A stretch of DNA of 64,000 nt from an uncultured bacterium (GCA_965366065.1 CBDUDV010000014.1:141-64140); one strand, 5' to 3'. Counted from the first letter of the stretch, positions 28,506 to 48,884 are shown. Notes: generated from the sequence alone by a model not told the origin. Numbers and translations are program-made.

Positions 28506-30131
28506 ATGATAATGGTGAATAAAGGAGAGGTAGAGATGATAAAAAACATTTTACAAAGCTGGAAGAGTCAATGGCCAACAATACATTCGACTAAACCCTT
28601 AGCTATCGACGAAGGCGTGATTGATCAAGGCGCGTTTAATGCGATTGAAGTGGGTGAGTTATTTGATACCGTAAATCAAGCCAGTACGATAGCGGGACAA
28701 GCGGTTTTATATCGGTCTTTAACGCAGCCCTCTGCCTCTGTTGTCGAGATTCAAGCCAAGCAAGATGCAGTCAAAGAAATTCAAGAAAATCCGGCTATTC
28801 GTGAGAACTTAGAGCGTATTGTGGCGAATGCGGCTACCACTGAAAACCATTTATATGTTTTGCTGTTTGGTGAGTTTTTAGGTGCGTTAGGTACGGCGCG
28901 CGAAAGCAAGCAAATTGAAGGCTATGGCCACCGCCAATATCGTCGTGGAATGCGATTTGTTGAGGATTTAACCGGCGCTATCTATGCTTCTAGCAATCCT
29001 GAAAGTACCTACCTGCAAAGTATTTTTAATAAAATAAATGGTTTTTCAAAAAGCCGTGTTCATTCCTTAATGATCGGGCCTGTTTATAATACGGAAAAAG
29101 GCTTTAAAACTAAAGAAGAGCGTAAAGGTGTCTTTACACCGGCAACGATCTTTCAGCCTAGCGTGTTTAAACCCTTATTGATCTTATCGCTGATTGTGGG
29201 CGTGGGCATCTTATCGCAAATGGTAACTTACAGCATTCCGGGCTTATCTTTTAGCACGGGTGGAATTTCGGGGGCGATTTTTGCACCACTGTTATTAGCT
29301 TATTTCCCGATTATAGGGTCATACGATCGAGATAACTGCATTATTCCATTGCGCAATGAGTTTAAAGAATCAGAAGAATTAGGCGATGCATTAGATGCTT
29401 TGGGGCAGATAGATGAATTATTAGCCTTTATTAAATTTTCTGAAAGTTTCGGTTCTGATATGGTGTTACCTACGATGGTAGAGAGCGAGCACCACAGCAT
29501 CAACCTTAAACAAGCAAAAAATCCCGTATTAGGCATGCGCAGCGATGGGTATGTCGGTAATGATTTTGTTTTAGAAAACGATAAACTGGTGTTTATAACC
29601 GGGCCAAATAGTGGCGGTAAAACGGCTTTTTGTAAAACGGTGACGCAGATTCAGCTGTTAGCGCAAATTGGCTGTTATGTGCCAGCGGAGTTAGCCACAA
29701 TGAGTGTTGCGGATAAAATAATTTATCAAGCCCCTGAAATTAGTCATCTTGATGATGGGGAAGGGCGCTTTGGCACGGAATTAAAGCGTACACGTGATAT
29801 CTTTTTAGCAACTACGGCAAAAAGCTTTGTAGTTTTAGATGAGCTTTCTGAAGGCACCACTTTTGAAGAAAAAATGGAATCATCGGGTAATGTATTAGAT
29901 GGTTTTTATCGCAAAGGAAACAATACTTTATTAATTACCCACAATCATCAATTGGTGGATGTGTTTATTAATAAAAGAGAAGGGGTAGCGAAACAGGTTG
30001 AGTTTGTGAATGATGCGCCTAGCTATCGCTTAATCGAGGGTATCTCGCGAGTGAGTCATGCCGATAGAGTGGCGAAGAAAATAGGCTTTTCTAAACAAGA
30101 TATCGATAATTATTTGGCGGATTCAAAATAA
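28506..30131 (+). CDS. MutS-related ATPase (domain V) with TM segments
   Basis: GPNSGGKT Walker A; LDELSEGT; ITHNH. Confidence 0.8.
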   Translation: MIMVNKGEVEMIKNILQSWKSQWPTIHSTKPLAIDEGVIDQGAFNAIEVGELFDTVNQASTIAGQAVLYRSLTQPSASVVEIQAKQDAVKEIQENPAIRENLERIVANAATTENHLYVLLFGEFLGALGTARESKQIEGYGHRQYRRGMRFVEDLTGAIYASSNPESTYLQSIFNKINGFSKSRVHSLMIGPVYNTEKGFKTKEERKGVFTPATIFQPSVFKPLLILSLIVGVGILSQMVTYSIPGLSFSTGGISGAIFAPLLLAYFPIIGSYDRDNCIIPLRNEFKESEELGDALDALGQIDELLAFIKFSESFGSDMVLPTMVESEHHSINLKQAKNPVLGMRSDGYVGNDFVLENDKLVFITGPNSGGKTAFCKTVTQIQLLAQIGCYVPAELATMSVADKIIYQAPEISHLDDGEGRFGTELKRTRDIFLATTAKSFVVLDELSEGTTFEEKMESSGNVLDGFYRKGNNTLLITHNHQLVDVFINKREGVAKQVEFVNDAPSYRLIEGISRVSHADRVAKKIGFSKQDIDNYLADSK

Positions 30132-30162: not shown

Positions 30163-30203
30163 AAAAAAGCCTCACCCATTATGAAAATGAGTGAGGCTTT
30201 TTT
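30163..30203 (-). terminator. Terminator of groEL copy A (bidirectional)
   Basis: aaaaaagcctcac...gtgaggctttttt. Confidence 0.85.
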
Positions 30204-30229: not shown

Positions 30230-31948
<1,719 letters not shown>

Positions 31949-31959
31949 TTAAGCTTAGT

Positions 31960-32244
31960 TTATAGAGTGGCCATAATATCGTCTTCACGCATGACGATTA
32001 AGTCCTCACCGTCCACGGTGACTTCACTACCTGAATATTTAGTAAATAACACATGATCTCCGACTTTAACGTGCATTTCATGTAGTGATCCATTGTCTAA
32101 AACTTTACCAGAACCAATAGCGACAACTTTTCCTTCGCTAGGCTTTTCTGTTGCCGAACCTGGTAGTACGATGCCACTTGCAGTGGTTGTTTCTTCTTCA
32201 ACGCGTTTAATGACAACACGGTCGTGTAGAGGTTTAATCTTCAT
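31960..32244 (-). CDS. groES: Co-chaperonin GroES, copy A (divergent)
   Basis: [21 protein letters not shown]. Confidence 0.95.
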
Positions 32245-32282
32245 TATTTTCTCCTTGTTAATAATTGATAGTGATTAGGGTT

Positions 32283-32951
32283 TTATTGCATTGTCGCGAC
32301 ATCGGATGTTTCGTCTACTTCAATTTCTTGCTGCTTTTTTTGAATAATATAGCGACCGAATTCTTGTAATGTGTGTACGGAGACTGGAATAGCATCCATA
32401 AGATTAATAGTTAAGCGAGACTTCCATTCGTCACTACTAAACTCTTCTTTGGTGTTTTTCTTTATTGATTCTAATAAGTCGGTTGTATCAAATTCCTCAT
32501 CAGCTAAAGCTCTAAAAACTTCAACACTACTGACAATAGAATCTGATTTAGCCGAATTTTTTATCATGAATGGTGTGCTCCATACCGGTAGACGTAAGGA
32601 TAAACCGAACCAAAAACCATGAGACCAGTTGTAAATATTATCAAATACAGTCTCATCTAAATTTTTAATATCGAAAGGATAGCTTAGCTCCCCTTTGTGT
32701 CTTAATGCCGTGTAGTGAGAAAAGCAGTCCATCAAGAATTCAGCTAAATCTTTAGCCGTTTCATCCTCTTCAAAAACAGCAAGGTCGCCATAAAAAGGGG
32801 CGGGCAACCATTCGGTAGGTTTAATTAAATCAGGTGTAATAACCAGCGCATGCATAAATCCTTCTAACTCTTTTTGATTAAAACAGCCACCAGGAATATT
32901 AATCGGTGCAAAACGTAATTGAAATCGGTCTTCTAGTTCTTTAGTAAGCAT
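32283..32951 (-). CDS. UPF0149/YecA-family protein
   Basis: ELEGFMHALVITPDLIKPTEWLP and WSHGFWFG motifs. Confidence 0.7.
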   Translation of the reverse strand: MLTKELEDRFQLRFAPINIPGGCFNQKELEGFMHALVITPDLIKPTEWLPAPFYGDLAVFEEDETAKDLAEFLMDCFSHYTALRHKGELSYPFDIKNLDETVFDNIYNWSHGFWFGLSLRLPVWSTPFMIKNSAKSDSIVSSVEVFRALADEEFDTTDLLESIKKNTKEEFSSDEWKSRLTINLMDAIPVSVHTLQEFGRYIIQKKQQEIEVDETSDVATMQ

Positions 32952-32993
32952 AGGTTTGAAAATCCAAGGGTATAAGAAGTGATGTTAGGTGAT

Positions 32994-33575
32994 TTATAAA
33001 TTAATCAATAAGGAAGAGACAATGTTGAAATAGCTATTGAGTAGTAAGGCTAAAGACTCATAGTAGATGTTTTCTAAGCCTTGAATCGGTTGGTTGCTTA
33101 AAAAATCGATAATATTCGTCACTTGTAAATTCAGCGCATCAATGGTTTTTGTAGAGAGACTGATAGATGAGTCTATCAACACATTGACGCCATGGTTCAG
33201 TGTATTAAATGTATCTACTGTCACCATTTTAGGATGATCAATAAAGAACTGAATCGCATTTTGTGCCTGACTACTGTAATCGCTCGCAACACTAACAAAC
33301 TGCTGATAATCCGCTTGGGCGCTTGGAATAATATCGTTATTCAGATGCGCATAAAATTCATTTCCTTTATCCGTTATCTCGCCTTTCCAGCGCAAACTTG
33401 TTTCAACAGGCGCATCATAAAATTCGGTAGTTGCGTTAGCAATACTGGTGTGTAACTCATTACCAGAAATAGCTGCGCGTTCAAATAGCGCATTAGCTTG
33501 CTGGCTTAGTAATTGATATAGCTCTTTAGTTGGCGTGATTATTTTTTCATCGTAATTAATATTGGAAGCGTTCAT
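32994..33575 (-). CDS. Hypothetical helical protein, 193 aa
   Basis: Open frame with AGGTGAG upstream; no motif recognised. Confidence 0.7.
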   Translation of the reverse strand: MNASNINYDEKIITPTKELYQLLSQQANALFERAAISGNELHTSIANATTEFYDAPVETSLRWKGEITDKGNEFYAHLNNDIIPSAQADYQQFVSVASDYSSQAQNAIQFFIDHPKMVTVDTFNTLNHGVNVLIDSSISLSTKTIDALNLQVTNIIDFLSNQPIQGLENIYYESLALLLNSYFNIVSSLLINL

Positions 33576-33680
33576 TGCTCACTCACCTGGTCTTAGTAAA
33601 ATTTGAAGAGAGCATTCTATCTGCAACAAATGCACTAAGGGAATGAGTCATATTGACGCGCGGCAAAATGCCGCTGATAT

Positions 33681-33696
33681 TGGCATTATATTTGCT
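33681..33696 (+). promoter_or_regulatory. Candidate second sigma-54 (-24/-12) promoter
   Basis: TGGCAT-TATAT-TTGCT with exact GG/GC spacing. Confidence 0.45.
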
Positions 33697-33745
33697 GAGT
33701 ATTAAAGGTTTGTACTGAATATTTGCTTAATTAATTGTGGATAAT

Positions 33746-33758
33746 TAAGAGCTTGATA
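33746..33758 (-). promoter_or_regulatory. IHF consensus site upstream of mmoX
   Basis: TAAGAGCTTGATA is the reverse complement of WATCAANNNNTTR; a one-mismatch site lies at 33963-33975. Confidence 0.5.
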
Positions 33759-34004
33759 TCGGCAAAATATTTTTGGAAGTTTTTTGAAGCTAGTGAATTA
33801 AGGTGATTGATCGTGTTTAGCTACAGTAAATGACGAAAACTATTTTTATGAATAAAGTGCTTACACATTTTCGCAGTGTTCAAAAATAAATGTCTAATTA
33901 TTGAACGAATGATCAGTTTTTAAACAGTGAATGAATATTTCATAGAAGTGATTATATGTGGTTATCTAGTTGATTTTTAATGATTTAATTTATATTTTGT
34001 AGTT

Positions 34005-34020
34005 TGGCACACTCGTTGCA
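34005..34020 (+). promoter_or_regulatory. Sigma-54 promoter of mmoX
   Basis: TGGCAC-ACTCG-TTGCA; sMMO operons are known to be sigma-54/MmoR dependent. Confidence 0.9.
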
Positions 34021-34151
34021 ATAAGTTACTGAGAAGCTGTCGCTAGGCTTGAGTTAGCAGACACTTCAATACTGTACGTTATCAAGCAAATAGGCATAGT
34101 GATAGCGACAGCTTCATTAACACTACTAACAAAGAAACGAGGATAATAAAC

Positions 34152-35735
34152 ATGGCAATAAGTGCTGCAACAAAAGCTGCAACCGATGCTTTGGCTGTTA
34201 ATCGTGCACCGACTGGCGTCAATGCTCAGGAAGTACATAGATGGCTACAAAGTTTTACTTGGGACTTCGATAAAAATCGTACTAAGTATCCTACTAAGTA
34301 CAAAATGGCGAATGATACGAAAGAGCAATTTAAGCTCATCGCCAAAGAATATGCACGCATGGAGTCTGTTAAAGATGAGCGTCAGTTCGGTAGTTTACAG
34401 GATGTATTAACACGTGTGGATGCGGGTAACAAAGTTCACCCGAAATGGAATGAGACGATGAAAGTTATCTCTAACTTCTTAGAAGTTGGGGAATACAATG
34501 CGATTGCTGCGACTGGGATGTTGTGGGATTCTGCTCAAGCACCTGAGCAAAAAAATGGATATTTAGCGCAAACATTAGATGAAATTCGTCACACTAACCA
34601 ATGTGGTTATGTGAATTACTATTTCACTAAACATGGGCAGGATGCCGCAGGACATAATGATGCACGTCGTACTAGAACAATTGGGCCGTTATGGAAAGGA
34701 ATGAAACGTGTATTCTCTGATGGGTTTATTTCAGGGGATGCTGTGGAATGTTCAATTAACTTACAGTTAGTTGGAGAAGCGTGTTTCACCAATCCACTAA
34801 TTGTTGCTGTTACTGAATGGGCTGCTGCCAATGGTGATGAAATCACACCAACGGTATTCTTATCTATTGAAACAGATGAGCTGCGCCATATGGCAAACGG
34901 TTACCAAACAATTGTTTCGATTGCAAACGACGAAGCCGCTTCGAAATACTTGAACACTGACCTTAACAATGCCTTCTGGACACAGCAAAAATATTTTACA
35001 CCAGTTTTAGGTATGTCGTTTGAATATGGTTCGCATTTTAAAGTTGAGCCTTGGGTTAAAACTTGGAACCGTTGGGTGTACGAAGACTGGGGCGGTATCT
35101 GGATTGGTCGTTTAGGTAAGTACGGAGTGAATTCTCCTGCAAGTTTACGTGATGCTAAAAAAGATGCGTACTGGGCTCATCATGATTTATTTCTTATTGC
35201 TTACGCACTATGGCCGACAGGTTTCTTCCGTTTAACATTACCAACGGCTGAAGAAGCAGATTGGTTTGAACTTAACTACCCAGGGTGGCACGAGCATTAC
35301 GGTGTTATTTATGACGAATGGCGTGCGCGTGGATGTGAAGACCCAAGCAGTGGCTTTCTTCCTATTATGTGGTTTATTGAAAACAATCACCCTATCTATA
35401 TTGATCGCGTATCACAAGTGCCTTTTTGCCCTAGCTTATGTAAAGGTGCAAGTACTTTACGTGTACATGAGTATAACGGTAAGAAAAATACTTTCAGTGA
35501 TGACTGGGGCGAACGTATGTGGCTATCTGAGCCAGAGCGTTATGAGTGTCAAAATATGTTTGAGCAATACGCAGGACGCGAATTATCAGAAGTGCTGACT
35601 GAATTACATGGTGTACGTAGCGATGGTAAGACTTTAATCGCACAACCGCACACGGATAAAGATAAGAAAATGTGGACATTGGATGATATTAAAGCACTGA
35701 ACTGTGTTTTTTCTGATCCTGTTGACGCGCTGTAA
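34152..35735 (+). CDS. mmoX: sMMO hydroxylase alpha subunit
   Basis: MAISAATKAATDALA N-terminus; diiron motifs LEVGEY, DEIRH, LVGEAC, DELRH. Confidence 0.99.
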   Translation: MAISAATKAATDALAVNRAPTGVNAQEVHRWLQSFTWDFDKNRTKYPTKYKMANDTKEQFKLIAKEYARMESVKDERQFGSLQDVLTRVDAGNKVHPKWNETMKVISNFLEVGEYNAIAATGMLWDSAQAPEQKNGYLAQTLDEIRHTNQCGYVNYYFTKHGQDAAGHNDARRTRTIGPLWKGMKRVFSDGFISGDAVECSINLQLVGEACFTNPLIVAVTEWAAANGDEITPTVFLSIETDELRHMANGYQTIVSIANDEAASKYLNTDLNNAFWTQQKYFTPVLGMSFEYGSHFKVEPWVKTWNRWVYEDWGGIWIGRLGKYGVNSPASLRDAKKDAYWAHHDLFLIAYALWPTGFFRLTLPTAEEADWFELNYPGWHEHYGVIYDEWRARGCEDPSSGFLPIMWFIENNHPIYIDRVSQVPFCPSLCKGASTLRVHEYNGKKNTFSDDWGERMWLSEPERYECQNMFEQYAGRELSEVLTELHGVRSDGKTLIAQPHTDKDKKMWTLDDIKALNCVFSDPVDAL

Positions 35736-35769
35736 GTCACACCCTATTTAATAGATAAAGGAAATACTA

Positions 35770-36948
35770 ATGGCAATACAAATAGAAACAGGTCAACGGG
35801 GACTAACGGACCCAGAAATGCAAAAAGTCATTGCGGATGCAGTGCCTGATCAACCTTTAGAATCTAACCGTAAAATGAACTACTTCGTTAAGCCGCGTGG
35901 ACGTCGCTTATCAGAGTATGAAATTCTATGTTGTTATACACAACCGACACCCGATTGGATTGCTGGTGGATTGGATTGGGGTGATTGGACGCAAAAATTT
36001 CATGGTGGTCGCCCTTCATGGGGTAATGAAACCACAGAAATGAAGTCAACGGATTGGCATAAACATCGTGATCCTGATAAACGCTGGCACGCTATCTATG
36101 TTAAAGATAAGGCAGAAGAAGCGCGCTATACACAGCGCTTTCTAAAGGCTTATTCGGCTGAAGGTCAAATCCGTACCATGAATCCTGTTTGGCGTGATGA
36201 AGTGCTAAACGATTATTTAGGCGCTTTTTGCTTTAACGAATATGGATTATTCAACTCACATTCTTCTGCTACACGTGATTGCTTAGGCGATACATTGCGT
36301 ATGAGTATTGCGATGATTGGCTTTGATAAAGTTGATAATGCGCAAATGATTCAAATGGAAAGAACCTTTTTAGCTAAATTGGTACCTGATTTCCCAGAAT
36401 CAACAGCAGAGCCTAAAAAAGAATGGACTGAAGGGAAAATCTATAAAGGCGCAAGAGAAGTTGTTGAAGATATTTGGCAAGATACCTATGACTGGAATGA
36501 AATTCTATGGGCAGGTCACATGGTGCATGATGCGCTGTTTGGTCAATTTGTACGCCGTGAGTTCTTCTTACGTTTATCTTCGTTCTACGGTGATAACTTA
36601 ACGCCTTTCTTTATTAACCAAGCGCAACTGTATCATCAACAGACTAAGGGAATTACGCAAGATATGTTCTTCCATTGTTTGGGTGATGATGCTGAATTTG
36701 GTGACTATAACCGCCGTCTAATGCGGGCCTGGACAGACAAATGGCTGCCAAGAACGCTGAATGCAATGAAAGATTTTATGGGCATTTTAGATAAAATTCC
36801 TGAAATTGATCATGTCACCACTAGAGATGCTGTTGAAGCAGCTGTAGGGCGTGTTGTTGACGATTGGATTGAAGATTATGCGAATAAAATTGGTTATAAA
36901 GCGGATAGAGCAGCTATGTTAAAAACCGTTTTATCTGGGCTTAAATAA
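35770..36948 (+). CDS. mmoY: sMMO hydroxylase beta subunit
   Basis: GLDWGDWTQKFHGGRPSW; position in operon. Confidence 0.98.
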   Translation: MAIQIETGQRGLTDPEMQKVIADAVPDQPLESNRKMNYFVKPRGRRLSEYEILCCYTQPTPDWIAGGLDWGDWTQKFHGGRPSWGNETTEMKSTDWHKHRDPDKRWHAIYVKDKAEEARYTQRFLKAYSAEGQIRTMNPVWRDEVLNDYLGAFCFNEYGLFNSHSSATRDCLGDTLRMSIAMIGFDKVDNAQMIQMERTFLAKLVPDFPESTAEPKKEWTEGKIYKGAREVVEDIWQDTYDWNEILWAGHMVHDALFGQFVRREFFLRLSSFYGDNLTPFFINQAQLYHQQTKGITQDMFFHCLGDDAEFGDYNRRLMRAWTDKWLPRTLNAMKDFMGILDKIPEIDHVTTRDAVEAAVGRVVDDWIEDYANKIGYKADRAAMLKTVLSGLK

Positions 36949-36958
36949 AGGAAATACT

Positions 36959-37381
36959 ATGTCAAATAAAGCAAATTCGTATGGTGCTGGCATCATGGCG
37001 AAAACAGGCAAAGAGTTTGCCGATGAATATTTCGCTGAAGAAAACCAAGTGGTTCACGAAAGTAGTGATGTTGTTCTTGTCTTAAAGAAGTCTGATGAAA
37101 TTAACATCATTGTTGATGAAATCTTATTAGGTGACCGTAAAGATGACAATCCAACCTTAGTGATTGAAGATCGTGCGGGTTACTGGTGGTTAAAAGCGAC
37201 AGGTAAAATTGAAGTGGATTGTGAAGAAGCCGCTGAAGTTTTAGGTAAAGACTATAACGTCTACGACTTTTTAGTGGATGTGTCTTCTACTATTGGGCGT
37301 GCCTTTACATTGGGTGAAACTTTTACCATTACATCTGAGCTCATGGGGCTTGATCGTGAATTGGAAAACTTGGAAGCATAG
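36959..37381 (+). CDS. mmoB: sMMO regulatory protein B
   Basis: VVLVLKKSDEI, SSTIGRAFTLG, SELMGLDR. Confidence 0.98.
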   Translation: MSNKANSYGAGIMAKTGKEFADEYFAEENQVVHESSDVVLVLKKSDEINIIVDEILLGDRKDDNPTLVIEDRAGYWWLKATGKIEVDCEEAAEVLGKDYNVYDFLVDVSSTIGRAFTLGETFTITSELMGLDRELENLEA

Positions 37382-37390
37382 GAGCTAACA

Positions 37391-37894
37391 ATGGCAAATT
37401 ATAAAGTACATGACAACCCTGTGCGTGATGAGTGGATCGCTAAAATTGGGCAGCTCAATACGCTTGCAAAAGGCGCTGAGTTTTTAACGGGCTTCCGTAA
37501 AAAATACACGACACCGTTACGTGAAAGCTTCGATTTAGAGCTAGATTGGTGTTGGATTGAGGCAAAAATTGAAGAAAAAGTGGCGTTATTGAAGCACGCA
37601 GAATTGAATGATACACAGTTTTTAAACAACTGTACCTGTGGTGCAAATGCGCAAGAAGTTGCTGATGCTGTGGTTGCTAAAATGGATGCTTGTTCTGAAA
37701 AATATGTAGCTGAAAAGTTACATATTAATTTTAGAACAGATTTTAAGCCACCTATTATGCCAACCAATGTGTTTATGGACACGGATCGTTTATTAGGCAC
37801 CAAACTAATGGAGTTACGTAATGTTGATTATTACGACATGCCATTAGAAGAGTTGCGTAAAGAGCGTGGCGTTAAAATTATTACGATTCAGTAA
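37391..37894 (+). CDS. mmoZ: sMMO hydroxylase gamma subunit
   Basis: FKPPIMPTN, LEELRKERGV. Confidence 0.97.
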   Translation: MANYKVHDNPVRDEWIAKIGQLNTLAKGAEFLTGFRKKYTTPLRESFDLELDWCWIEAKIEEKVALLKHAELNDTQFLNNCTCGANAQEVADAVVAKMDACSEKYVAEKLHINFRTDFKPPIMPTNVFMDTDRLLGTKLMELRNVDYYDMPLEELRKERGVKIITIQ

Positions 37895-37964
37895 TAAGGC
37901 AGGGTAGTTTTGCCGTTATCACTGTGCTTTTAGTCATGCACGAAAGTGCAGTGATCTGGCAGCT

Positions 37965-38000
37965 TGTAAAAGCACTTTAATAGAGTGCTTTTACACTTTT
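37965..38000 (+). terminator. Strong stem-loop between mmoZ and mmoD
   Basis: tgtaaaagcact / agtgcttttaca 12-bp stem followed by a short T-run. Confidence 0.65.
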
Positions 38001-38021
38001 AACTAAAAAGTAAGGAAAGAT

Positions 38022-38291
38022 ATGACTGATCTGTATGAGCAACCGACTAGAAATGTTAGTGAAATGTTTGGTAAAAATGAAGATCTAAATAAGCTATATG
38101 ATGATGATACTTATACTGCCTATACTGAAGATTTAGAGTTTATGTGGCGCTGGACTATTTATCGTGAAGATAAGTTAGTTCAAGAAGGCTGTTCACTCAC
38201 TGAAGATGCTTCTAAACGCGCGGTTGATCACGTTATGGCTTTTTTTAATATTAATGCAAAATGTAAACAGCAACGAGAGGTGATTGGTTAA
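38022..38291 (+). CDS. mmoD: MmoD (OrfY)
   Basis: DLEFMWRWTIYREDKLVQEGCSL. Confidence 0.92.
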   Translation: MTDLYEQPTRNVSEMFGKNEDLNKLYDDDTYTAYTEDLEFMWRWTIYREDKLVQEGCSLTEDASKRAVDHVMAFFNINAKCKQQREVIG

Positions 38292-39325
38292 TGTTAAACC
38301 ATCAAATTAAGATCATCACAGAAGAAGGCGAAGTCACTGAATTTGATTGTGCCGAAGACGAAGATATTATTAGTGCAGCAATACGCCAAAGTATTTTTTT
38401 AATGTCATCTTGCCGAGAAGGTGGTTGTGCTACCTGTAAGGGGGAATGTACGGAAGGTGACTTTGAAATGGGTAAGGTAAGTGCGCAAGCTTTACCTCAG
38501 GAAGAACAAGAAGAAGACATGGTTTTATTGTGTCGTTGTTATCCAACAGACGATATGGTGGTTGAAGTACCTTATACATTTGACCGCATTTCTTACTCAG
38601 AAGAAGGTAAAGAGTTTTCTACTGAAATTACAGAGCTACAGCAAGTATCAAGTAATGTGACTAAATTATGTTTAAAACGCACGGATGGCGAAAAACAAAT
38701 TAAGTTAGATTCTGGGCAATATTATGATTTAGAAATACCAGGTACAGAGATAACGCGCTCTTATTCACCCGCGAATATTGGCAATAATGACGGCGAGATG
38801 GAGTTCCTAATTCGTGTATTGGATGACGGTAAGTTTTCTAATTATCTTAAGCAAGACGCTAAACTTGGGCAAGCACTTAATGTGAAAGGGCCGTCAGGGA
38901 TTTTTGGCTTAGTGGCGAATGGATTTACGCCGCGTTATTTTGTTGCGGGCGGAACAGGGTTAGCACCTATTTTATCAATGGTTCGGTTTATGAAGGAATG
39001 GGGTGAGCCTCAGCCTTGTACGATTTATTTCGGATCAACTTTTGAAGAAGAAGTTTTTTATATTGATGAGTTGAATAAGTTGGCCAGTGAAATGGATAAC
39101 TTAACGGTCAAGATATGCGTATGGAAAGCGACGGATTCTTGGGCAGGTGAAAAAGGCAGTGTAGTTGATGTCTTGAAAAAGGATTTACAAGAGGCTTCCA
39201 CTAAACCTGATTTGTATTTATGCGGCCCTCCTGGAATGGTGGATGCAACTTATGCTGCATGTGCTGAAGTAGGTATTTCTAAAGATAATATTTATCTAGA
39301 GAAATTCTTAGCTAGCGCTTCTTGA
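38291..39325 (+). CDS. mmoC: sMMO reductase
   Basis: [2Fe-2S] motif CREGGCATC...LCRC; RSYS, GGTGLAP, YLCGPPGMV. Confidence 0.98.
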   Translation: MLNHQIKIITEEGEVTEFDCAEDEDIISAAIRQSIFLMSSCREGGCATCKGECTEGDFEMGKVSAQALPQEEQEEDMVLLCRCYPTDDMVVEVPYTFDRISYSEEGKEFSTEITELQQVSSNVTKLCLKRTDGEKQIKLDSGQYYDLEIPGTEITRSYSPANIGNNDGEMEFLIRVLDDGKFSNYLKQDAKLGQALNVKGPSGIFGLVANGFTPRYFVAGGTGLAPILSMVRFMKEWGEPQPCTIYFGSTFEEEVFYIDELNKLASEMDNLTVKICVWKATDSWAGEKGSVVDVLKKDLQEASTKPDLYLCGPPGMVDATYAACAEVGISKDNIYLEKFLASAS

Positions 39326-39346
39326 TTTTTTGCTGCTAACGATTTT

Positions 39347-39631
39347 ATGGATAAGCAAGATATCGAATTCATTTATGAAATGGTCAATCAATTGGATAGC
39401 ACGATCCATAAGCTGGTTGAAGACGAAGAAAGGATTCGGCAGAAACTCAGTGATGAGCGTATCGAAGAGTTAAATGAATATTGGCAGCAGGAATTAAGCG
39501 ACGAAGACGCACAAGAATTAAAAGCGACATTCGATTATTGGGACAAAATGCTAATTGTTACTTGGGCGCATAGCCGTAGAGCACACATAACAAGAGCTGC
39601 CGCAGGGCAAAAACTCATGAAAGAAAGTTAG
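39347..39631 (+). CDS. Small orf between mmoC and mmoG
   Basis: 94-aa helical ORF in the slot where gammaproteobacterial sMMO clusters carry a conserved hypothetical gene. Confidence 0.75.
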   Translation: MDKQDIEFIYEMVNQLDSTIHKLVEDEERIRQKLSDERIEELNEYWQQELSDEDAQELKATFDYWDKMLIVTWAHSRRAHITRAAAGQKLMKES

Positions 39632-39702
39632 TTTACATCAATAGGTGGGTTTTAACCTGTATTGAGCCTATTGTTTATCAACAAATTTAATAAGAAATCA
39701 CT

Positions 39703-41388
39703 ATGCCTAAACAAATAATTTATGATGAAGAAGTACGTAATCGTTTTATGTGCGGTATTAATAAAGTCGCTAATGCGGTGAGTGTTACCTATGGCAGTGC
39801 AGGGCCTGCAGTGATGATTGAACATATTGCGTCTGGGTTGCCGCCTGTTTTTACACGCGATGGTGTGACGGTAGCAAAATCTATACAGTGCGAAGATCGT
39901 ACTGAAGATTTAGGCGCTAGAATGTTACGTGATGCAGCCAGTGCTGTTTCACGTAAGGTAGGCGATGGAACTACCTCAACGATAGTGCTTGCACAAGCAA
40001 TTAGTAAAGAATGCATGATACATGTAACGACAGGGTATCACCCTATTCAATTAAAGCGTGGAATGGATTTAGCGCTAGCCTTTGTTGAAGCTAAATTAAA
40101 AGAACAGGCGATTAGCGGAATTAATAGTGACTATATAGAAAGCATTTCAGCGATAGCGACTAAAAATGAGCCGGGCGTTGGAACTTTATTGGTTGAAGCT
40201 TTCGATAAGTTAGGCACGGAGAGCCCCTTAACATTTCAGCTGGGTAACAGTCGTGAAGATCAGTTGAGTATTGTTGACGGTCTTAGTTATGAGCAAGGGT
40301 ATTTATCCCCCTATTTTGTAACGGATTCAGATCGAGATGAAGCTATTTTAGAAAACCCTTATATATTGCTTTACGATAAAGAAATTAGTGATCTAATGGA
40401 CTTGGTTCCTATATTAGAAGAAGTCAGCGTAGAAAATCGTCCTCTATTGATTATTGCAGAAGACGTGGTTGATAAAGCGTTATCAGGCTTGTTACTGAAT
40501 CATGTAAAAGGGATATTTAAAGTAGCCGCCGTTAAGCCGCCAGGTTTTGGTGATAAATGTGAGAACCGTTTAAAGGATTTAGCGTTAATAACGGGTGGTG
40601 AAGCATTAGTTGGAGATTTCGCAACCAAGCTTGAACAGGTAACTTTAGACCAATTAGGCCAAGCGAAGCATGTCGTCATTACGGCTGAAAATATAACCAT
40701 TGTAGGGGGTTATGGTGATGCAACTGCGATTAAACAGTGTAGGCTACGATTAGAAGAAGAGGCTGATTTTATTCAGAATAAAAAACCGGGAGATGGATCG
40801 CCGACAGGGAATAAACATGATTTTGAAGAGCTAGAAGAGCGACTCGCTATTTTATCTGGAAAAACGGGTGTTTATGAAGTTGGAGGCATTAGCGATATAG
40901 AAATAAAAGAACGTATGGTGCGCATTGAAAATGCCTATATGTCGACTAAAGCAGCAATAGAAGAAGGTGTCTTACCGGGGGGAGGGGTAGGATTGTTTAA
41001 TATTATTCATCTCCTAGATGAATTGATAGCACCTAATATAGAGCAGCAGCAGGGTGTTGACATTGTTAAGCAGGCTTTGCAAAAGCCATTGCAGCGTTTA
41101 GTTAGTAATGTGGGTGTTAATAGCGAAGAAGTGATAGCGCGATTACGTAGTGAGAATAATCCTCGTTTTGCCTACAACACACAAGATAAGCAATATGGTG
41201 ATTTTTTAGAAATTGGTGTGATTGATGCGGTGAAGGTAATACGCCTTGCACTGCGTCATGCAGTTAGTGTGGTAGGAACATTGTTGACCACGGAAGTGGT
41301 CATCAAACATGTTCCTGATCATTCAATTATGGCAGGGTATTCACCCGAGTGGGCCGCGGCAACGCGTGAAGACCCGCGTGCGCCATAA
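39703..41388 (+). CDS. mmoG: GroEL-like sMMO chaperone MmoG
   Basis: Divergent chaperonin (TRDGVTVAK, GDGTTST, KPPGFGD), no GGM tail, ends WAAATREDPRAP. Confidence 0.93.
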   Translation: MPKQIIYDEEVRNRFMCGINKVANAVSVTYGSAGPAVMIEHIASGLPPVFTRDGVTVAKSIQCEDRTEDLGARMLRDAASAVSRKVGDGTTSTIVLAQAISKECMIHVTTGYHPIQLKRGMDLALAFVEAKLKEQAISGINSDYIESISAIATKNEPGVGTLLVEAFDKLGTESPLTFQLGNSREDQLSIVDGLSYEQGYLSPYFVTDSDRDEAILENPYILLYDKEISDLMDLVPILEEVSVENRPLLIIAEDVVDKALSGLLLNHVKGIFKVAAVKPPGFGDKCENRLKDLALITGGEALVGDFATKLEQVTLDQLGQAKHVVITAENITIVGGYGDATAIKQCRLRLEEEADFIQNKKPGDGSPTGNKHDFEELEERLAILSGKTGVYEVGGISDIEIKERMVRIENAYMSTKAAIEEGVLPGGGVGLFNIIHLLDELIAPNIEQQQGVDIVKQALQKPLQRLVSNVGVNSEEVIARLRSENNPRFAYNTQDKQYGDFLEIGVIDAVKVIRLALRHAVSVVGTLLTTEVVIKHVPDHSIMAGYSPEWAAATREDPRAP

Positions 41389-41454
41389 GTTTAAAGTTGT
41401 TCCTTGTAATACTACCTCAGCTCTTATGAGCTAATTTATTCTTTTTAGAATAAA

Positions 41455-41491
41455 GGCAGTGCGACACTATGTCGCATTGCCTCTTTTTTTT
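41455..41491 (+). terminator. Hairpin plus T-run after mmoG
   Basis: GGCAGTGCGACA-CTA-TGTCGCATTGCC followed by tctttttttt. Confidence 0.75.
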
Positions 41492-41600
41492 ATTCTGGTA
41501 TCTTAATAAATCACCCTAAGTTTTTGTTTTTAATCTAAAAAATAAGGATTATGGTTTTCTGTCGACACTATATCGGTCAGGATAAATAAATAAGATAAAT

Positions 41601-43367
41601 ATGGATATTGAATTTAAAATTCCCAATAAAATAAATATTGTTCAAGAGACGTTTTTAGTACGCCAATCTTTTGAATTTGAAATGTTTCGTCCCATTCAGG
41701 CGTGGCAATGGATGGTTCAGGCGCGCTCTGTTCCTGAGCAAAAGGACTGGGTTCGTTCGGATGTCGCTGAAGCTTGGCATCGATGCTTAGAAGACTATCA
41801 GTTGCCGTTAGGAAATTATGCAAATTGGGATAAGCATTTATTTACACAGATAGCCAATGACGAGAATGATAAGTCTGAAAAGGTTGCTCAACAAATAAAG
41901 CATTTAAGCCATCATTTTCAAGTTTTTTTAAAAGAAGCGGGCGTGATGATGGTCGTTGTAGCGCCTAATAGTAGCCTACTATACGTTGCTGGCGAAAAAC
42001 ACTTTCCACATGCCTTTCAATTACCGACTCAAATAAAAGATACGAATTGGAGTGAGTCTGTACTCGGTAATAATGGAATAGGCACGGCACTTAAATTAAA
42101 AAAACCGGTTGCCTTTCAAGGAATGGAGCATTATTTAAGTATTTTGCACCCCTACACAACAGTCGGATATCCACTCTTAGACGAATCAGGCGAGCTGCTT
42201 GCCGTTATTGGTTTAGTGAGTGATCACCAAGAGCAAATGAGTTCTCTATTTGCTTTTCTGCACCTTATTTGTGTTTTAGTGAATACACACCTTCCTATTG
42301 CTCAGGATGCTGAAGCTCAAGTCAGGGTGTTAGAGAAAATATCCTTTCAACCCGCTAAAAAAATAGCTGAGACTGAATTTTCATCTTCTGTCACCGAAGA
42401 CTTAGAGCGTTATGTGCATAAAGCGGTAAAGTTACAAAAACATAAAATTCCTATTTTGATTACGGGGGAGTCGGGTGCTGGTAAGGATCATTTTGTTAAT
42501 TTAATTAAAAAAGCAGGCCCTAGAAAGGACGCGCCTTTAATTGCCATTAACTGCTCATCTATCCCGCGTGATTTAATTGAAAGTGAATTATTTGGGTATG
42601 AAGCAGGTAGTTTTACGGGTGCTAGAAGTGGCGGTAAGCCAGGTAAATTTAGTCTGGCAGATGGCGGGACTCTATTTTTAGATGAAATTGGCGATATGAG
42701 TATTGATTTACAATCTACTCTACTGCGAGTATTGGAGAATTCTGAGTTTACACCCGTTGGAGGAACGCACCCTATTCGCGTCAATGTGCAAATTGTTGCA
42801 GCAACGAATGTAAAACTATCTGAAGCGGTTAAAGCGGGGAATTTTCGACAAGACCTGTATTATCGATTAAATGGTGCTCAAATTCATTTGCCGCCATTAC
42901 GCGATCGTGAGGATAAAGAACAAATTATTGAACATTTATTACAGCGTGAAATTAATAATATTGTGGGTGAAGAAGATATTTCAATTTCACCTGATGTGAT
43001 TAATTTATTTAATCAGCACCCTTGGCCAGGAAATATAAGACAGTTTATTAATGTTATTCGAGCCACCTTATATACCGCAGGAGGGGTTCACATTACTGAA
43101 GATGATCTTCCCATGGATTTTATGCAAGAATGGCATGAGAGAGACGATGCAGTAGACAAAGAAAATAGCGATATAGTCAGTCTTCTTACCAAGAATAGCC
43201 CGAGTTTGGCTGACTGGGAAAAGCATGGTATTCAAACCGCTTTAAGCGATTGTGAAGGCAATATTTCATTAACAGCTAAAAAACTAGGCATTACCAGGGC
43301 CACTTTATATAAGAAAATTGAGCGCTTAGGTTTAGCTCGATCAGGACATGAGGCTGTGACGAGTTGA
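41601..43367 (+). CDS. mmoR: Sigma-54 activator MmoR
   Basis: GAF-like N-domain, GESGAGKD, GSFTGA, LFLDEIGDM, Fis HTH; next to mmoG. Confidence 0.9.
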   Translation: MDIEFKIPNKINIVQETFLVRQSFEFEMFRPIQAWQWMVQARSVPEQKDWVRSDVAEAWHRCLEDYQLPLGNYANWDKHLFTQIANDENDKSEKVAQQIKHLSHHFQVFLKEAGVMMVVVAPNSSLLYVAGEKHFPHAFQLPTQIKDTNWSESVLGNNGIGTALKLKKPVAFQGMEHYLSILHPYTTVGYPLLDESGELLAVIGLVSDHQEQMSSLFAFLHLICVLVNTHLPIAQDAEAQVRVLEKISFQPAKKIAETEFSSSVTEDLERYVHKAVKLQKHKIPILITGESGAGKDHFVNLIKKAGPRKDAPLIAINCSSIPRDLIESELFGYEAGSFTGARSGGKPGKFSLADGGTLFLDEIGDMSIDLQSTLLRVLENSEFTPVGGTHPIRVNVQIVAATNVKLSEAVKAGNFRQDLYYRLNGAQIHLPPLRDREDKEQIIEHLLQREINNIVGEEDISISPDVINLFNQHPWPGNIRQFINVIRATLYTAGGVHITEDDLPMDFMQEWHERDDAVDKENSDIVSLLTKNSPSLADWEKHGIQTALSDCEGNISLTAKKLGITRATLYKKIERLGLARSGHEAVTS

Positions 43368-43403
43368 TTAAGTTTTGAAGGTGAAAATAGGTTAAATAGT
43401 TAT

Positions 43404-43447
43404 AAAAAAAGCCCCCTCCCTGATTAGCTCAAGGAGGGGGCTTTTTT
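43404..43447 (-). terminator. Bidirectional terminator between mmoR and groEL copy B
   Basis: aaaaaaagccccctcc...ggagggggctttttt. Confidence 0.85.
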
Positions 43448-43472
43448 GTGTAACGAGTTTAAGCGGGGGAGC

Positions 43473-45457
<1,985 letters not shown>

Positions 45458-45593
45458 TTATATCTCCTAACAATATTAAAAATAAAAAAGTTTAAAAAAT
45501 TATTAAGCTCTACCTATTATAGAATAGGCAAATCTTATTGCTGTTTGCGCTGTATGGCGTTATTTACATCACCCATAACTAATATATTACTTT

Positions 45594-46340
45594 ATGAATG
45601 ACGATCAACTGCTTCGCTATAGCCGTCAAATTATGCTGCCTCAAGTGGATATTGAAGGGCAAGAACGTTTACTTGCGGCTAAAATACTTATTATTGGCGC
45701 CGGTGGGCTTGGCTCACCGGCAGCATTATATCTTGCTGCTGCGGGCGTAGGCTCACTGGTAATCTATGACGATGATGAAGTTGATCTCTCTAACTTACAA
45801 CGGCAAATTACGCATTACACAGACGATATTGGGACGGATAAAGTCATTTCAACCCAAGAAACATTAAATAAAATTAATCCTGAAGTAAAGGTGAGAGCTG
45901 TGAAGCAACGCCTCGAAGGAAGTAAACTGGAGCAAGAAGTTGATGCGGCTGATGTGGTGTTGGATTGTAGCGATAACTTTACAACTCGCTTCGCTATTAA
46001 TGCCGCTTGCGTGCAATATAAGACGGCATTAGTATCGGGGGCAGCAATTCGTTTTGATGGTCAAGTGAGTGTGTTTAATGCGGCAGAAAATGCACCTTGT
46101 TATAACTGTTTGTATGCTGAAACGGGTGAAGAACTACAAAATTGCGCACTGAATGGGGTAATATCACCGCTGACGGGCATTATTGGCAGTATTCAGGCCT
46201 TAGAGGCAATGAAGCTAGTGATGGGGATAGGTGAGGCTTTAACTGGGCGACTTTTGCTATTGGATGGCTTAAGCATGCAATGGAATGAGATGAAGTTACG
46301 TAAAAATTCAGCCTGTCCTACCTGCGCAGTAAAAAATTAA
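45594..46340 (+). CDS. moeB: Molybdopterin-synthase adenylyltransferase, MoeB/ThiF family
   Basis: RYSRQI, GAGGLGSP, SNLQRQ, CYNC and CPTC zinc motifs. Confidence 0.85.
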   Translation: MNDDQLLRYSRQIMLPQVDIEGQERLLAAKILIIGAGGLGSPAALYLAAAGVGSLVIYDDDEVDLSNLQRQITHYTDDIGTDKVISTQETLNKINPEVKVRAVKQRLEGSKLEQEVDAADVVLDCSDNFTTRFAINAACVQYKTALVSGAAIRFDGQVSVFNAAENAPCYNCLYAETGEELQNCALNGVISPLTGIIGSIQALEAMKLVMGIGEALTGRLLLLDGLSMQWNEMKLRKNSACPTCAVKN

Positions 46341-46908: not shown

Positions 46909-47817
46909 ATGAAAATCAGAGTTCTTGGATCAGGTGCAGGCGGCGGATTTCCTCAGTGGAACTGCAGTTGCCCCAATTGTAAAGCGGTTCGTGCAGGTAC
47001 CATAAAAGCGACGACACGTAATCAATCGTCGATTGCGGTTTCTTCCGATGGTGAGCATTGGGTTTTATTCAATGCGTCTCCTGACGTGCGTGCGCAATTA
47101 GAAAATTTTCCTGAAATTCACCCAAAAAATAAAGTACGTGGTACGGGCATAGAAGCGATTGTAATAATTGACTCGCAAATTGACCATGCCACTGGATTAC
47201 TTATCTTACGTGAAGGTGATCCACTGAATGTTTACTGTACGGAAATGGTAAAACAAGATCTGAGTACAGGGTTTCCTATCTTCAATATTTTAGAGCACTT
47301 TTGTGGTGTTAATGACCATACAATTCCGTTAGATGGTAAATCGTTTACTATTCCTAATATTGATGACTTAGAATTTACTGCTTTAGCACTAAAAAGCAAA
47401 GCACCACCGTATTCACCGCATAGAAATGACCCGCATGAAGGGGATAATATCGGTATGATTATTCGTCAGATTTCAACAGGAAAAACCACGTTTTATGCGC
47501 CCGGTTTAGGACTAATCGAACCGCATGTTGAACAAGCAATGACTGCCGCTGACTGCGTGATGGTGGATGGCACTTTTTGGACTGATGATGAGTTAGCCTC
47601 TGTTGGGCGTCCATTATTAGCAAGAAAAATTGGCCATTTACCGCAATCGGGTGAAGGCGGTATGATTGAATTTTTAGATACGCTAGAAAAACCACGTAAA
47701 ATTTTAATCCATATTAATAATACCAATCCTATTCTCAATGATGAATCGGAAGAGCGCGCTATACTTGATCAACACGGTATAGAAGTATCCTTTGATAATA
47801 TGAATATAGAGTTATAA
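46909..47817 (+). CDS. pqqB: PQQ biosynthesis protein B
   Basis: [33 protein letters not shown]. Confidence 0.97.
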
Positions 47818-47819
47818 GT

Positions 47820-48551
47820 ATGACAGAGCAAGCACCTTGGACACGGGCAGAGTTTGAAGCCAAATTACGTGGCATGGAGAATAAATATCATATTCACCAT
47901 CCTATGCATACCTTGATGAATGAAGGGAAACTTACTAAAAAGCAACTACAAGGCTGGGTTGCTAATCGGTTTTATTATCAGATTATGATACCGATTAAAG
48001 ATGCTAATATTTTAGCTAATTGCCCTGATAGAGAAACACGTGCGATTTGGACACAAAGAATTTTGGATCATGATGGCCACCCTGGAGATGAGGGAGGTAT
48101 TGAAGCATGGGTACAATTAGGTATTGCGGTGGGTATGACACGTGAAGATATTACCTCGTTAAAATTTGTACTGCCAGCAGTTAGGTTTGCAGTGGATGCG
48201 TATGTTAATTTTGCACGCCGCTCTGAGTGGCATGAGGCCGCAAGTTCATCATTAACCGAAATGTTCGCGCCTAAAATACATCAGCAACGCTTAAGTAATT
48301 GGCCAGAGCTTTACCCTTGGGTAGACGATGAGGGTTATATTTACTTTCGTAAACGGCTCACTGAAGCAAGACGTGATGTTGAACATGGTCTAGAAATTAC
48401 CTTAGATTGGTATCAAACCCGTGCGCAGCAAGAGCGCATGGTAGAGATATTACAATTTAAACTCGATGTTTTATGGTCGATGGCAGATGCGATGTATATG
48501 GCCTATGTTAATGATATGCCTCCCTACTTTAATGTAGAAGACACGATTTAA
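47820..48551 (+). CDS. pqqC: Pyrroloquinoline-quinone synthase
   Basis: [25 protein letters not shown]. Confidence 0.97.
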
Positions 48552-48611
48552 CGGCACTTGAAAAGGGCGACTTTTAAAGTCGTCCTTTAAATTTAATTAA
48601 AGATAATTATC

Positions 48612-48884
48612 ATGAGTATTAACCCTGAAAAAATTATTCAGTTCTCCCCTTTACATCGACTTCAATGGGAAGAAGCACAGCAAAAAGATGTGATTCTTTA
48701 CCCTGAAGGAATGGTTGAGCTGAACCAAAGTTCTGCTGAAATTTTAAAGCTTTGTGATGGTTCTCGTGCCTTAAATGGTATTGTGAGCGATTTAGAAGAG
48801 AAATTTAGCACAACAGGCTTAAAAAACGACATTATTGCTTTCTTAGAAGTGGCATTACAAAATGGCTGGATCAAACAAGATTAA
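48612..48884 (+). CDS. pqqD: PQQ peptide chaperone
   Basis: LYPEGMVELN; EILKLCDG. Confidence 0.95.
   Translation: MSINPEKIIQFSPLHRLQWEEAQQKDVILYPEGMVELNQSSAEILKLCDGSRALNGIVSDLEEKFSTTGLKNDIIAFLEVALQNGWIKQD

Follow-up and report, generated by a model that had tools for sequence, protein, structure and literature searches.

A second groESL module in a soluble methane monooxygenase island probably joins a groES of separate ancestry to a groEL under gene conversion

The hydroxylase of soluble methane monooxygenase (sMMO) needs the chaperonin pair GroESL to fold in Escherichia coli (PMC9324122; bioRxiv 10.1101/2021.08.05.455234). GroESL2 of Methylococcus capsulatus improves the solubility of MmoX and MmoY, and its GroEL2 suffices with E. 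coli GroES (bioRxiv 10.1101/2021.08.05.455234), which implies that the specificity of GroES pairing is generally low. Cultured sMMO methanotrophs carry no groES with the sMMO cluster, and no lid gene is known for the GroEL-like protein MmoG (PMC9324122). In rhizobia, groESL3 of Bradyrhizobium japonicum shares its regulation with nif, and groEL3/4 are required for nitrogenase (PMC6604987). Here we describe groES-A, a co-chaperonin gene that lies near an sMMO cluster in a 64,000-nucleotide (nt) stretch of DNA from an uncultured bacterium (GCA_965366065.1 CBDUDV010000014.1:141-64140; hereafter the window, in which all coordinates are counted).

We consider it likely that GroES-A belongs to the second groESL module of a 13.2-kb sMMO island at the housekeeping groESL locus, and that the contrast between its divergent GroES pair and its near-identical GroEL pair comes from groES ancestry combined with groEL conversion. 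Like M. capsulatus GroESL2, the 'cognate' chaperonin for recombinant sMMO, the module is a second methanotroph groESL. By analogy, the closest functional counterpart of the extra operon would be the rhizobial groESL operons kept for nitrogenase: as with B. japonicum groESL3, an extra chaperonin operon tied to the genes of a hard-to-fold metalloenzyme exists beside a housekeeping copy. In B. japonicum co-regulation was shown, via a -24/-12 promoter, whereas here no sigma-54 site faces the operon. Unlike their rhizobial counterparts, the two operons of the window stand as direct repeats on either side of the enzyme genes, with groEL sequence passing between them.

GroES-A matches the Cpn10 family (Pfam PF00166) at 122 bits (cut-off 21.1) over residues 2-93 of 94 and the NCBIfam GroES model NF001527 at 147.5 bits, above the cut-off of 120; its top matches among PDB sequences are GroES chains (E=6e-35). 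The mobile loop comprises residues 16-36, with the hydrophobic IVL tripeptide, which makes contact with helices H and I of GroEL, at 25-27, as in E. coli and all relatives. Set against canonical bacterial GroES (E. coli GroES, 1AON), GroES-A has the same length, a full Cpn10 domain, the IVL loop, a tyrosine aligned to Tyr71, and a groEL gene next in the operon. It differs in being a second genomic copy, away from the thiF-linked housekeeping locus and behind a UPF0149 gene and an orphan gene, and in carrying the clade-specific residues H64 and T68 together with K39 and I12, which are likewise fixed in the GroES-A clade but occur rarely in housekeeping copies. On the same strand, groEL-A starts 86 nt 3' of groES-A with no terminator between them, just a 6-bp hairpin without a U-run that is present in L001 and L169/L170 and absent from L167. 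The 44-nt groES-B/groEL-B spacer gives no hairpin on folding and cannot be aligned with the 86-nt A spacer. Within the GroES-A clade, omega (the ratio of nonsynonymous to synonymous substitution rates) is 0.03-0.10, the same as for housekeeping pairs at similar synonymous divergence (dS); groES-A is thus under normal purifying selection. By these matches GroES-A is probably a functional, canonical co-chaperonin.

The sMMO genes lie between the two groES-groEL-terminator modules, direct repeats of each other whose period is 13,243 bp (Table 1). The gene order is thiF / groES-B groEL-B terminator / mmoR...mmoX / orf193 UPF0149 groES-A groEL-A terminator / mutS-like, and homology between A and B begins at groES and ends past the terminator. 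All genes from orf193 to groEL-A lie on the minus strand, divergent from mmoX over a 576-bp intergenic region.

Species-representative genomes yielded 80 groES loci on scanning; of these, 46 come from Methylococcales, and in 46/46 thiF is divergent from groES. The closest relatives, Methyloprofundus metagenome-assembled genomes (MAGs) and symbionts of Bathymodiolus and Gigantopelta, have the order pqq-thiF-groES-groEL in common with locus B, and groESL-B is the resident housekeeping copy at the ancestral Methylococcales locus. GroES-A departs from this arrangement, with UPF0149 and orf193 upstream instead of thiF; UPF0149 precedes groES in none of these housekeeping relatives. A protein identical to GroES-B occurs in two relatives. 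In the first (L180, GCA_028599115.1, a 91.6-kb contig) the order is pqq-thiF / groES groEL / mutS-like, hemN, uvrD-like, that is, the window's two flanks joined by one groESL; mmo genes and a second groESL are both lacking. The second (L182, a shorter contig) has a single groESL followed by a partial unidentified open reading frame (ORF), with no mmoR after groEL. Compared with this empty site, the extra 13.2 kb of the window are the sMMO cluster, orf193, UPF0149 and one more groES-groEL-terminator module. Insertion of the island could have used a circular intermediate recombining at groESL. We looked for a single Campbell-type crossover inside groEL, as a 5' B-like/3' A-like hybrid relative to L180 and L016, and found none: groEL-B is closer than groEL-A to the orthologues along the whole gene. 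Direct repeats of groEL around the sMMO genes suggest a simple route of sMMO gain and loss, by homologous recombination at a universally conserved gene.

This architecture recurs elsewhere. The groEL-B/mmoR junction is found again in the independent assemblies L179 and L181, and the mmoX-orf193-UPF0149-groES-A junction in L004-L006, at 98.7-99.5% nt identity, which argues that the architecture is no artefact of assembly. That a collapsed or chimeric repeat produced a false second copy or a hybrid groEL is scarcely credible. Several metagenome contigs (L004, L005) do end inside groEL-A, and the L006 groEL-A differs from that of the window in 49 columns (37 substitutions and a 12-nt indel in the GGM tail) next to an identical groES-A; but beyond the recurring junctions (L179, L181, L006), a second species at 88% identity (L001, L002) has the same architecture, contigs from DNA runs cover the whole stretch, and the depth of the island equals that of its flanks. 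The equal depth also means that the island is not amplified.

Global alignment gives 67/94 identical residues (71.3%, 27 differences) for GroES-A and GroES-B, and 521/547 (95.2%) plus a 3-residue GGM indel for GroEL-A and GroEL-B. These values reproduce the asymmetry reported in a preliminary description of the window (about 71% against about 95%, with about 27 of 94 GroES residues different), and the strings quoted there (TTTASGIVL against TTSAGGIVL, LFTKY against LFGKY, and a histidine stretch) are all present in the translations. As a reference we used 780 GroES/GroEL pairs from 40 housekeeping Methylococcales loci. Where GroEL is 94-96% identical in these pairs, GroES is at least 77.9% identical (median 91.6%); where GroES is at most 72% identical, GroEL is 81-86%. 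The A/B pair lies 3.3 standard deviations below the regression line and outside the range of the 780 housekeeping pairs. Synonymous sites differ as well, with a dS of 1.52 (proportion of synonymous differences, pS, 0.65) for groES and 0.63 (pS 0.43) for groEL. Along the repeat, A/B DNA identity is 57-87% across groES, climbs to ~95% where the groEL start codon is reached, remains between 80 and 95% over the gene and is lost within ~40 nt after the stop, just beyond the homologous terminator; overall, groES-A and groES-B are 71% identical at the nucleotide level and the two 1.65-kb groEL genes ~88%. Among housekeeping Methylococcales in general (L007-L052), GroES and GroEL identity are loosely coupled, GroEL at 92-94% going with GroES at 72.6-96.8%.

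The first component of the contrast appears to be ancestry. Among 5.8 billion proteins searched, a few metagenomic ones are 83-99% identical to GroES-A; from 80% identity downwards, ordinary Methylococcales GroES follow in an unbroken series. The GroES-A clade is monophyletic (93% bootstrap); its position, weakly supported, is among housekeeping GroES with the motif NGxxHxxHVKVGD, which comprise the mussel-symbiont/Methyloprofundus group, P0008/P0010 and one group from freshwater. GroES-B clusters with L025 among VRALEV-bearing copies. To judge from these sequences, GroES-A ('H-type') and GroES-B ('R-type') belong to different, old Methylococcales GroES lineages, and their separate positions in the tree imply that GroES-A is not a recent copy of GroES-B that drifted. 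UPF0149 precedes every GroES-A-clade gene whose contig reaches upstream, and L167, 83% identical to GroES-A, has orf193 too. In the Methyloprofundus group, one and the same thiF locus carries either H-type or R-type GroES, and groES alleles may, as this suggests, have been exchanged between lineages more generally.

The second component is visible in how informative sites sort among window A, L001-A, window B and L183-B, where L001 and L183 (a thiF-groES-B-groEL contig) presumably represent loci A and B of the second species. Sorting by locus is found at 54 groES sites, by genome at 1 and crosswise at 0; the corresponding groEL counts are 21, 45 and 15 (Fisher P=3e-19). Those groEL sites that follow the genome are gathered in blocks, at nt 44-385 and at nt 1293-1490, and their longest run numbers 19 (P=5e-5; runs test P=0.002). 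In an L183-independent comparison, which combines window A, L001-A and window B with a single outgroup out of five, the sites divide 28:5:1 in groES and about 30:32:25 in groEL; clustering of the groEL mosaic is significant by the runs test with 5/5 outgroups (P<=0.009) and by the longest-run test with 4/5. Along groEL, dS varies from 0.23 to 1.36, with 0.23 in codons 1-50 and 0.95-1.36 in codons 151-250, so that the least converted parts come near the groES value of 1.52. The longest run of A/B identity is 15 nt in groES, against runs of 53, 44, 41, 41, 38 nt and more in groEL. Block-wise sorting by genome indicates repeated intragenomic conversion of groEL after the species split, none of which would have reached groES. 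Gene conversion that homogenised only groEL had been offered as the alternative in the preliminary description, and both the sorting (54:1:0 against 21:45:15) and the block clustering support it.

Recombination needs roughly 20-30 nt of identity. As the groES-groEL spacers cannot be aligned (86 against 44 nt), homology stops just short of the groEL start codon, a few bases upstream. We propose that groES-A and groES-B descend from different old Methylococcales lineages, and that in each genome the groEL genes, which share long identical runs, would convert one another time and again. The groES pair would have escaped conversion because it is 71% identical at the nucleotide level, has a longest run of 15 nt and adjoins unalignable spacers; the asymmetric divergence would then arise because a groES pair of different ancestry adjoins a groEL pair in concerted evolution.

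In the library searched, we found no relevant literature on gene conversion between groEL paralogues. The tufA/tufB genes of enterobacteria are the textbook case of concerted evolution by gene conversion. As in tufA/tufB, the groEL paralogues resemble each other more than they resemble orthologues of other species, in tracts that end with the homology; unlike in tufA/tufB, conversion here covers one of two adjacent genes in a module, giving 71% against 95% within an operon pair. Where conversion affects a single gene of a duplicated operon, the outcome can thus mimic asymmetric functional divergence, a caution for reading paralogue identities as evidence of neofunctionalisation.

A difference in rate alone, in which GroES evolved faster than GroEL after a tandem duplication with no recombination, is very improbable. 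GroES is generally less conserved, with a median of ~80% when housekeeping GroEL is at 84-94%. However, such a difference sits poorly with the gap in dS (1.52 against 0.63), with an A/B pair outside all 780 housekeeping pairs, with groEL sites that sort by genome while groES sites sort by locus, and with a tree in which GroES-A is not closest to GroES-B.

The majority housekeeping residue is that of GroES-A at 8 of the 27 positions where GroES-A and GroES-B differ, and that of GroES-B at 18; at 1 position both copies depart from it. The mobile loop, described as altered in the preliminary description, turns out to be the loop of close relatives' housekeeping GroES: TTTASG occurs in L025, L028, L017/18 and L052, and the IVL contact is kept. 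Of the three histidines said to be gained, H64 is indeed new; H55 and H58 already occur together in 15/46 housekeeping Methylococcales copies, including that of the Bathymodiolus puteoserpentis symbiont (L010), which we take to have particulate methane monooxygenase only. A metal-binding histidine cluster accordingly receives no support. Six GroES-A residues (V41, S45, L54, H64, T68 and T93) are found in 0/46 housekeeping copies, and of the six just H64 and T68 are fixed throughout the GroES-A clade. The threonine that replaces the glycine of LFGKY is a clade-specific change at a site where G68 is near-invariant in Methylococcales (45/46); the site is not universally conserved in Cpn10, and N, S or P stands there in other bacteria. 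The tyrosine just after T68 aligns with E. coli GroES Tyr71, which presumably lines the cavity roof. T68 is the one GroES-A change that could plausibly matter.

The preliminary description had also proposed a dedicated lid: GroES-A may have evolved in concert with MmoG, or with rings of GroEL-A and MmoG, its histidines possibly binding metal. We regard this as improbable, and hold just as improbable its fuller form, in which GroES-A would be the selected missing lid of MmoG, orf193-UPF0149-groES-A-groEL-A a dedicated hydroxylase maturation module, and H64/T68 residues that tune the chamber, in a marine Methyloprofundus-like lineage. In its favour, MmoG, ~40% identical to GroEL, keeps the hydrophobic helix H/I apical groove for the GroES mobile loop (Y199, Y203, F204, L237, L259 and N265 kept; L234V, V263L and V264L conservative) and has no known lid gene (PMC9324122). 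As the same description had stated, no Cpn10 gene lies beside mmoG, whose neighbours are a 94-residue ORF with no Pfam match and mmoR. Moreover, mmoX is present on every GroES-A contig that is long enough (window, L001, L002, L004-L006), and H64 and T68 are confined to the GroES-A clade.

Set against this, GroES-A has a GroEL of its own 86 nt downstream, its loop and IVL are those of relatives' housekeeping GroES, and two of its histidines are common among these. No Cpn10 or groEL gene occurs in the 4-10 kb flanks of the sMMO clusters L171 (MmoG 74% identical), L173 (71%) and L174/L175 (66%), which come from related marine methanotrophs and lie in three different genomic contexts; cultured methanotrophs likewise lack a linked groES. 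The MmoG groove is the same with and without GroES-A: the helix H/I segments ISDLMDLVPILEEV and DKALSGLLLN are identical in the window, in P0121 (both GroES-A lineages) and in L171 (P0129), which has no groES nearby, while the L173 and L174 MmoG proteins (P0134, P0140) differ in the groove only conservatively (I/V, S/T, S/N). In this comparison of lineages with and without GroES-A, no MmoG interface changes are matched to GroES-A. Co-occurrence of GroES-A with mmoG fails across sMMO-positive genomes, whereas the reverse holds, as long-enough GroES-A contigs show mmoX. The Methyloprofundus sp. GLR997 MAG, which is fragmentary, yielded no A-type GroES among its matches, and its thiF-linked GroES (L028) is 94% identical to GroES-B. 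Finally, no sigma-54 site faces the groES-A operon, and the pairing of M. capsulatus GroEL2 with E. coli GroES speaks for low specificity. Co-evolution of GroES-A with MmoG or with GroEL-A/MmoG rings is thus left unsupported by its own GroEL, by the groES-less sMMO clusters and by the unchanged groove.

MmoG itself differs from GroEL in lacking the GGM tail, in D398N and in altered inter-ring contact residues. All 12/12 MmoG sequences compared have N at the catalytic D398 of GroEL; the inter-ring changes in the window's MmoG are R452Q, E461S, K105I and A109T. MmoG sequences also carry an 11-residue insertion (consensus KKPGDGSPTGN) within the stretch KKPGDGSPTGNKHDFEE, and in place of the GGM tail a near-invariant C-terminus, SIM(A/D/E)GYSPEWAAA(T/S)REDPR. 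Such changes hint at slow ATP hydrolysis and perhaps a single ring.

Less unlikely, though still doubtful, is a client-specialised pair, in which GroES-A/GroEL-A would be tuned to the sMMO hydroxylase and selection would prevent groES-A from being overwritten. The order orf193-UPF0149-groES-A is kept down to 83% GroES identity, with groEL-A next where the contig continues; Methyloprofundus sp. GLR997 likewise has orf193 linked to mmoX; T68 precedes by a few residues the equivalent of E. coli Tyr71, which lines the cavity roof; and the rhizobia offer a precedent, with groESL3 tied to nif and groEL3/4 to nitrogenase (PMC6604987). However, GroEL-A has no residues that set it apart from housekeeping GroEL and undergoes homogenisation with GroEL-B, which would leave GroES alone to carry any specialisation. 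In addition, omega in the GroES-A clade equals that of housekeeping copies, and most sMMO organisms do without such a pair.

Several points weigh against the reading we favour, which explains the contrast by groES ancestry and groEL conversion. The groES-A operon stays beside mmoX in both lineages whose contigs reach mmoX, and its order with orf193 and UPF0149 persists across lineages as divergent as 83% in GroES. H64 and T68, absent from 46/46 housekeeping GroES, are fixed across the GroES-A clade, and a neutral barrier to conversion also leaves room for selection that keeps GroES-A distinct. L001 and L183 were taken as one organism because both come from the same metagenome sample and both are 88% identical to the window at the nucleotide level; that sample holds other strains (L170). 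Change may have run in either direction: the island may have gone in, or recombination between the repeats may have removed it from L180. Scans of the minus strand with sigma-70, sigma-54 and sigma-32-like consensus sequences found no convincing promoter of the orf193 operon; conserved intergenic blocks exist. The groES-A/UPF0149 stretch was in none of the public RNA runs searched. Five metatranscriptomes share 5-7% of mmoX words; their contigs, mostly <95% identical and evidently from related species, cover mmoXYB and groEL, with none on UPF0149 or orf193.

GroES-A most likely caps GroEL-A and the near-identical GroEL-B, and the extra operon probably adds chaperonin capacity beside a cluster whose hydroxylase needs GroESL. 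GroES-A may be able to cap MmoG too, with no sign of specialisation for it. Recombinant sMMO is limited by the open questions of hydroxylase folding and of the MmoG lid (PMC9324122; bioRxiv 10.1101/2021.08.05.455234), and the locus leaves both unanswered. It does supply a natural case in which the sMMO genes are accompanied by a full extra groESL operon, a UPF0149 gene and an orphan, and so a short candidate list for co-expression with sMMO.

The exact match to the sigma-54 promoter of mmoX, TGGCACactcgTTGC, is the sole one in the window, is conserved in L001 and L002, and faces away from the groES-A operon; no -24/-12 match occurs on the minus strand upstream of orf193, UPF0149 or groES-A. 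A second conserved sigma-54-like element, TGGCATTATATTTGC at 33681-33695, lies ~470 bp upstream of mmoX in a hairpin-forming block and faces mmoX. In a conserved block ~100 bp upstream of the sigma-54 promoter, the inverted repeat GTTCAA-N17-TTGAAC (33878-33906) is a candidate enhancer site for MmoR. A metagenome scan with MmoR gave no orthologue among the matches listed, which were filled by unrelated activators (<=45% identity) that share the conserved sigma-54 AAA+ motif.

The CIRCE operator (TTAGCACTC-N9-GAGTGCTAA) has no match in the window at <=3 mismatches, and the sole 4-mismatch match is far from groESL. Exact CIRCE is present at 25/46 Methylococcales housekeeping loci and at 4 other gammaproteobacterial loci. 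It is also absent at groES-B and at the B loci of the closest relatives (L180, L182, L183, L184), so CIRCE does not separate A from B. Upstream of groES-B (45458-45593) lies a different conserved sequence shared with the closest relatives, including a palindrome, CCTATTCTATAATAGG, at 45513-45528. On these sequences, the sub-lineage seems to have replaced HrcA/CIRCE control of groESL.

Table 1. Features of the sMMO island and its flanks, in window coordinates.
Feature	Position	Strand	Remarks
groES-A	31960-32244	(-)	94-residue ORF; island-borne co-chaperonin; clade signature V11 I12 K39 H64 T68 L82
Spacer hairpin GCACUG-UUUUUC-CAGUGC	31919-31936	(-)	RNA fold; inside the 86-nt groES-A/groEL-A spacer
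groEL-A	30230-31873	(-)	547 residues, canonical GroEL; one arm of direct repeat; mosaic with groEL-B
Intrinsic terminator after groEL-A	30163-30201	(-)	homologous to groEL-B terminator; stem sequence differs
UPF0149 (YgfB/YecA-family) gene	32283-32951	(-)	Pfam PF03695, TIGR02292; ends 38 bp upstream of groES-A
orf193	32994-33575	(-)	193 residues; 42 bp upstream of UPF0149; heads putative orf193-UPF0149-groES-A-groEL-A operon
Sigma-54 promoter of mmoX	34005-34019	(+)	TGGCACactcgTTGC
sMMO cluster mmoX-mmoY-mmoB-mmoZ-mmoD-mmoC-orf94-mmoG-mmoR	34152-43367	(+)	ORFs; Pfam families of the same genes on L004, L179
mmoD	38022-38291	(+)	translation
mmoG	39703-41388	(+)	GroEL-like
mmoR	41601-43367	(+)	domain matches
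Intrinsic terminator after groEL-B	43404-43445	(-)	alignment of downstream regions
groEL-B	43473-45125	(-)	550 residues; resident copy; other arm of direct repeat
groES-B	45170-45457	(-)	95 residues; housekeeping co-chaperonin at ancestral thiF-linked locus
thiF/moeB-like gene	45594-46340	(+)	ancestral left flank
pqqB, pqqC, pqqD, pqqE	46909-49986		after thiF-like gene
Truncated mutS-like gene	28506-30131	(+)	ancestral right flank

The orf193 protein has no Pfam or NCBIfam match, and just 7 clusters of homologues were found among the 5.8 billion proteins; the single taxon-named one belongs to a Methyloprofundus MAG, and the contexts seen are Methyloprofundus-like. A homologue 49% identical is divergent from mmoX in Methyloprofundus sp. 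GLR997 (L173, 251-832), with no groESL there, which places orf193 divergently upstream of mmoX in two separate genomic contexts. Its AlphaFold2 model is all-helical and of low confidence (predicted local distance difference test, pLDDT, 53.5). We regard orf193 as a candidate lineage-specific sMMO accessory gene. The UPF0149 protein has no match among PDB sequences.

A few contigs from the DNA runs X1 and X3 jump from groEL-A to groEL-B and skip ~13.2 kb, for example from 30246 to 43472 at a depth of 263 against ~5,500. They overlap by just 21-29 letters within identical repeat sequence, and could reflect ambiguity in the assembly graph, a minor island-free strain or excision between the repeats, of which they are not proof. 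In a Methyloprofundus-like sMMO cluster (L178, 5816-6241), a gene with a BLUF (blue-light sensor) domain lies between mmoC and the orf94 homologue. The mutS-like protein encoded next to groEL-A has 541 residues, with MutS domains III and V only and no mismatch-binding N-terminus, and its truncated gene keeps this position in L001, L002 and L180.

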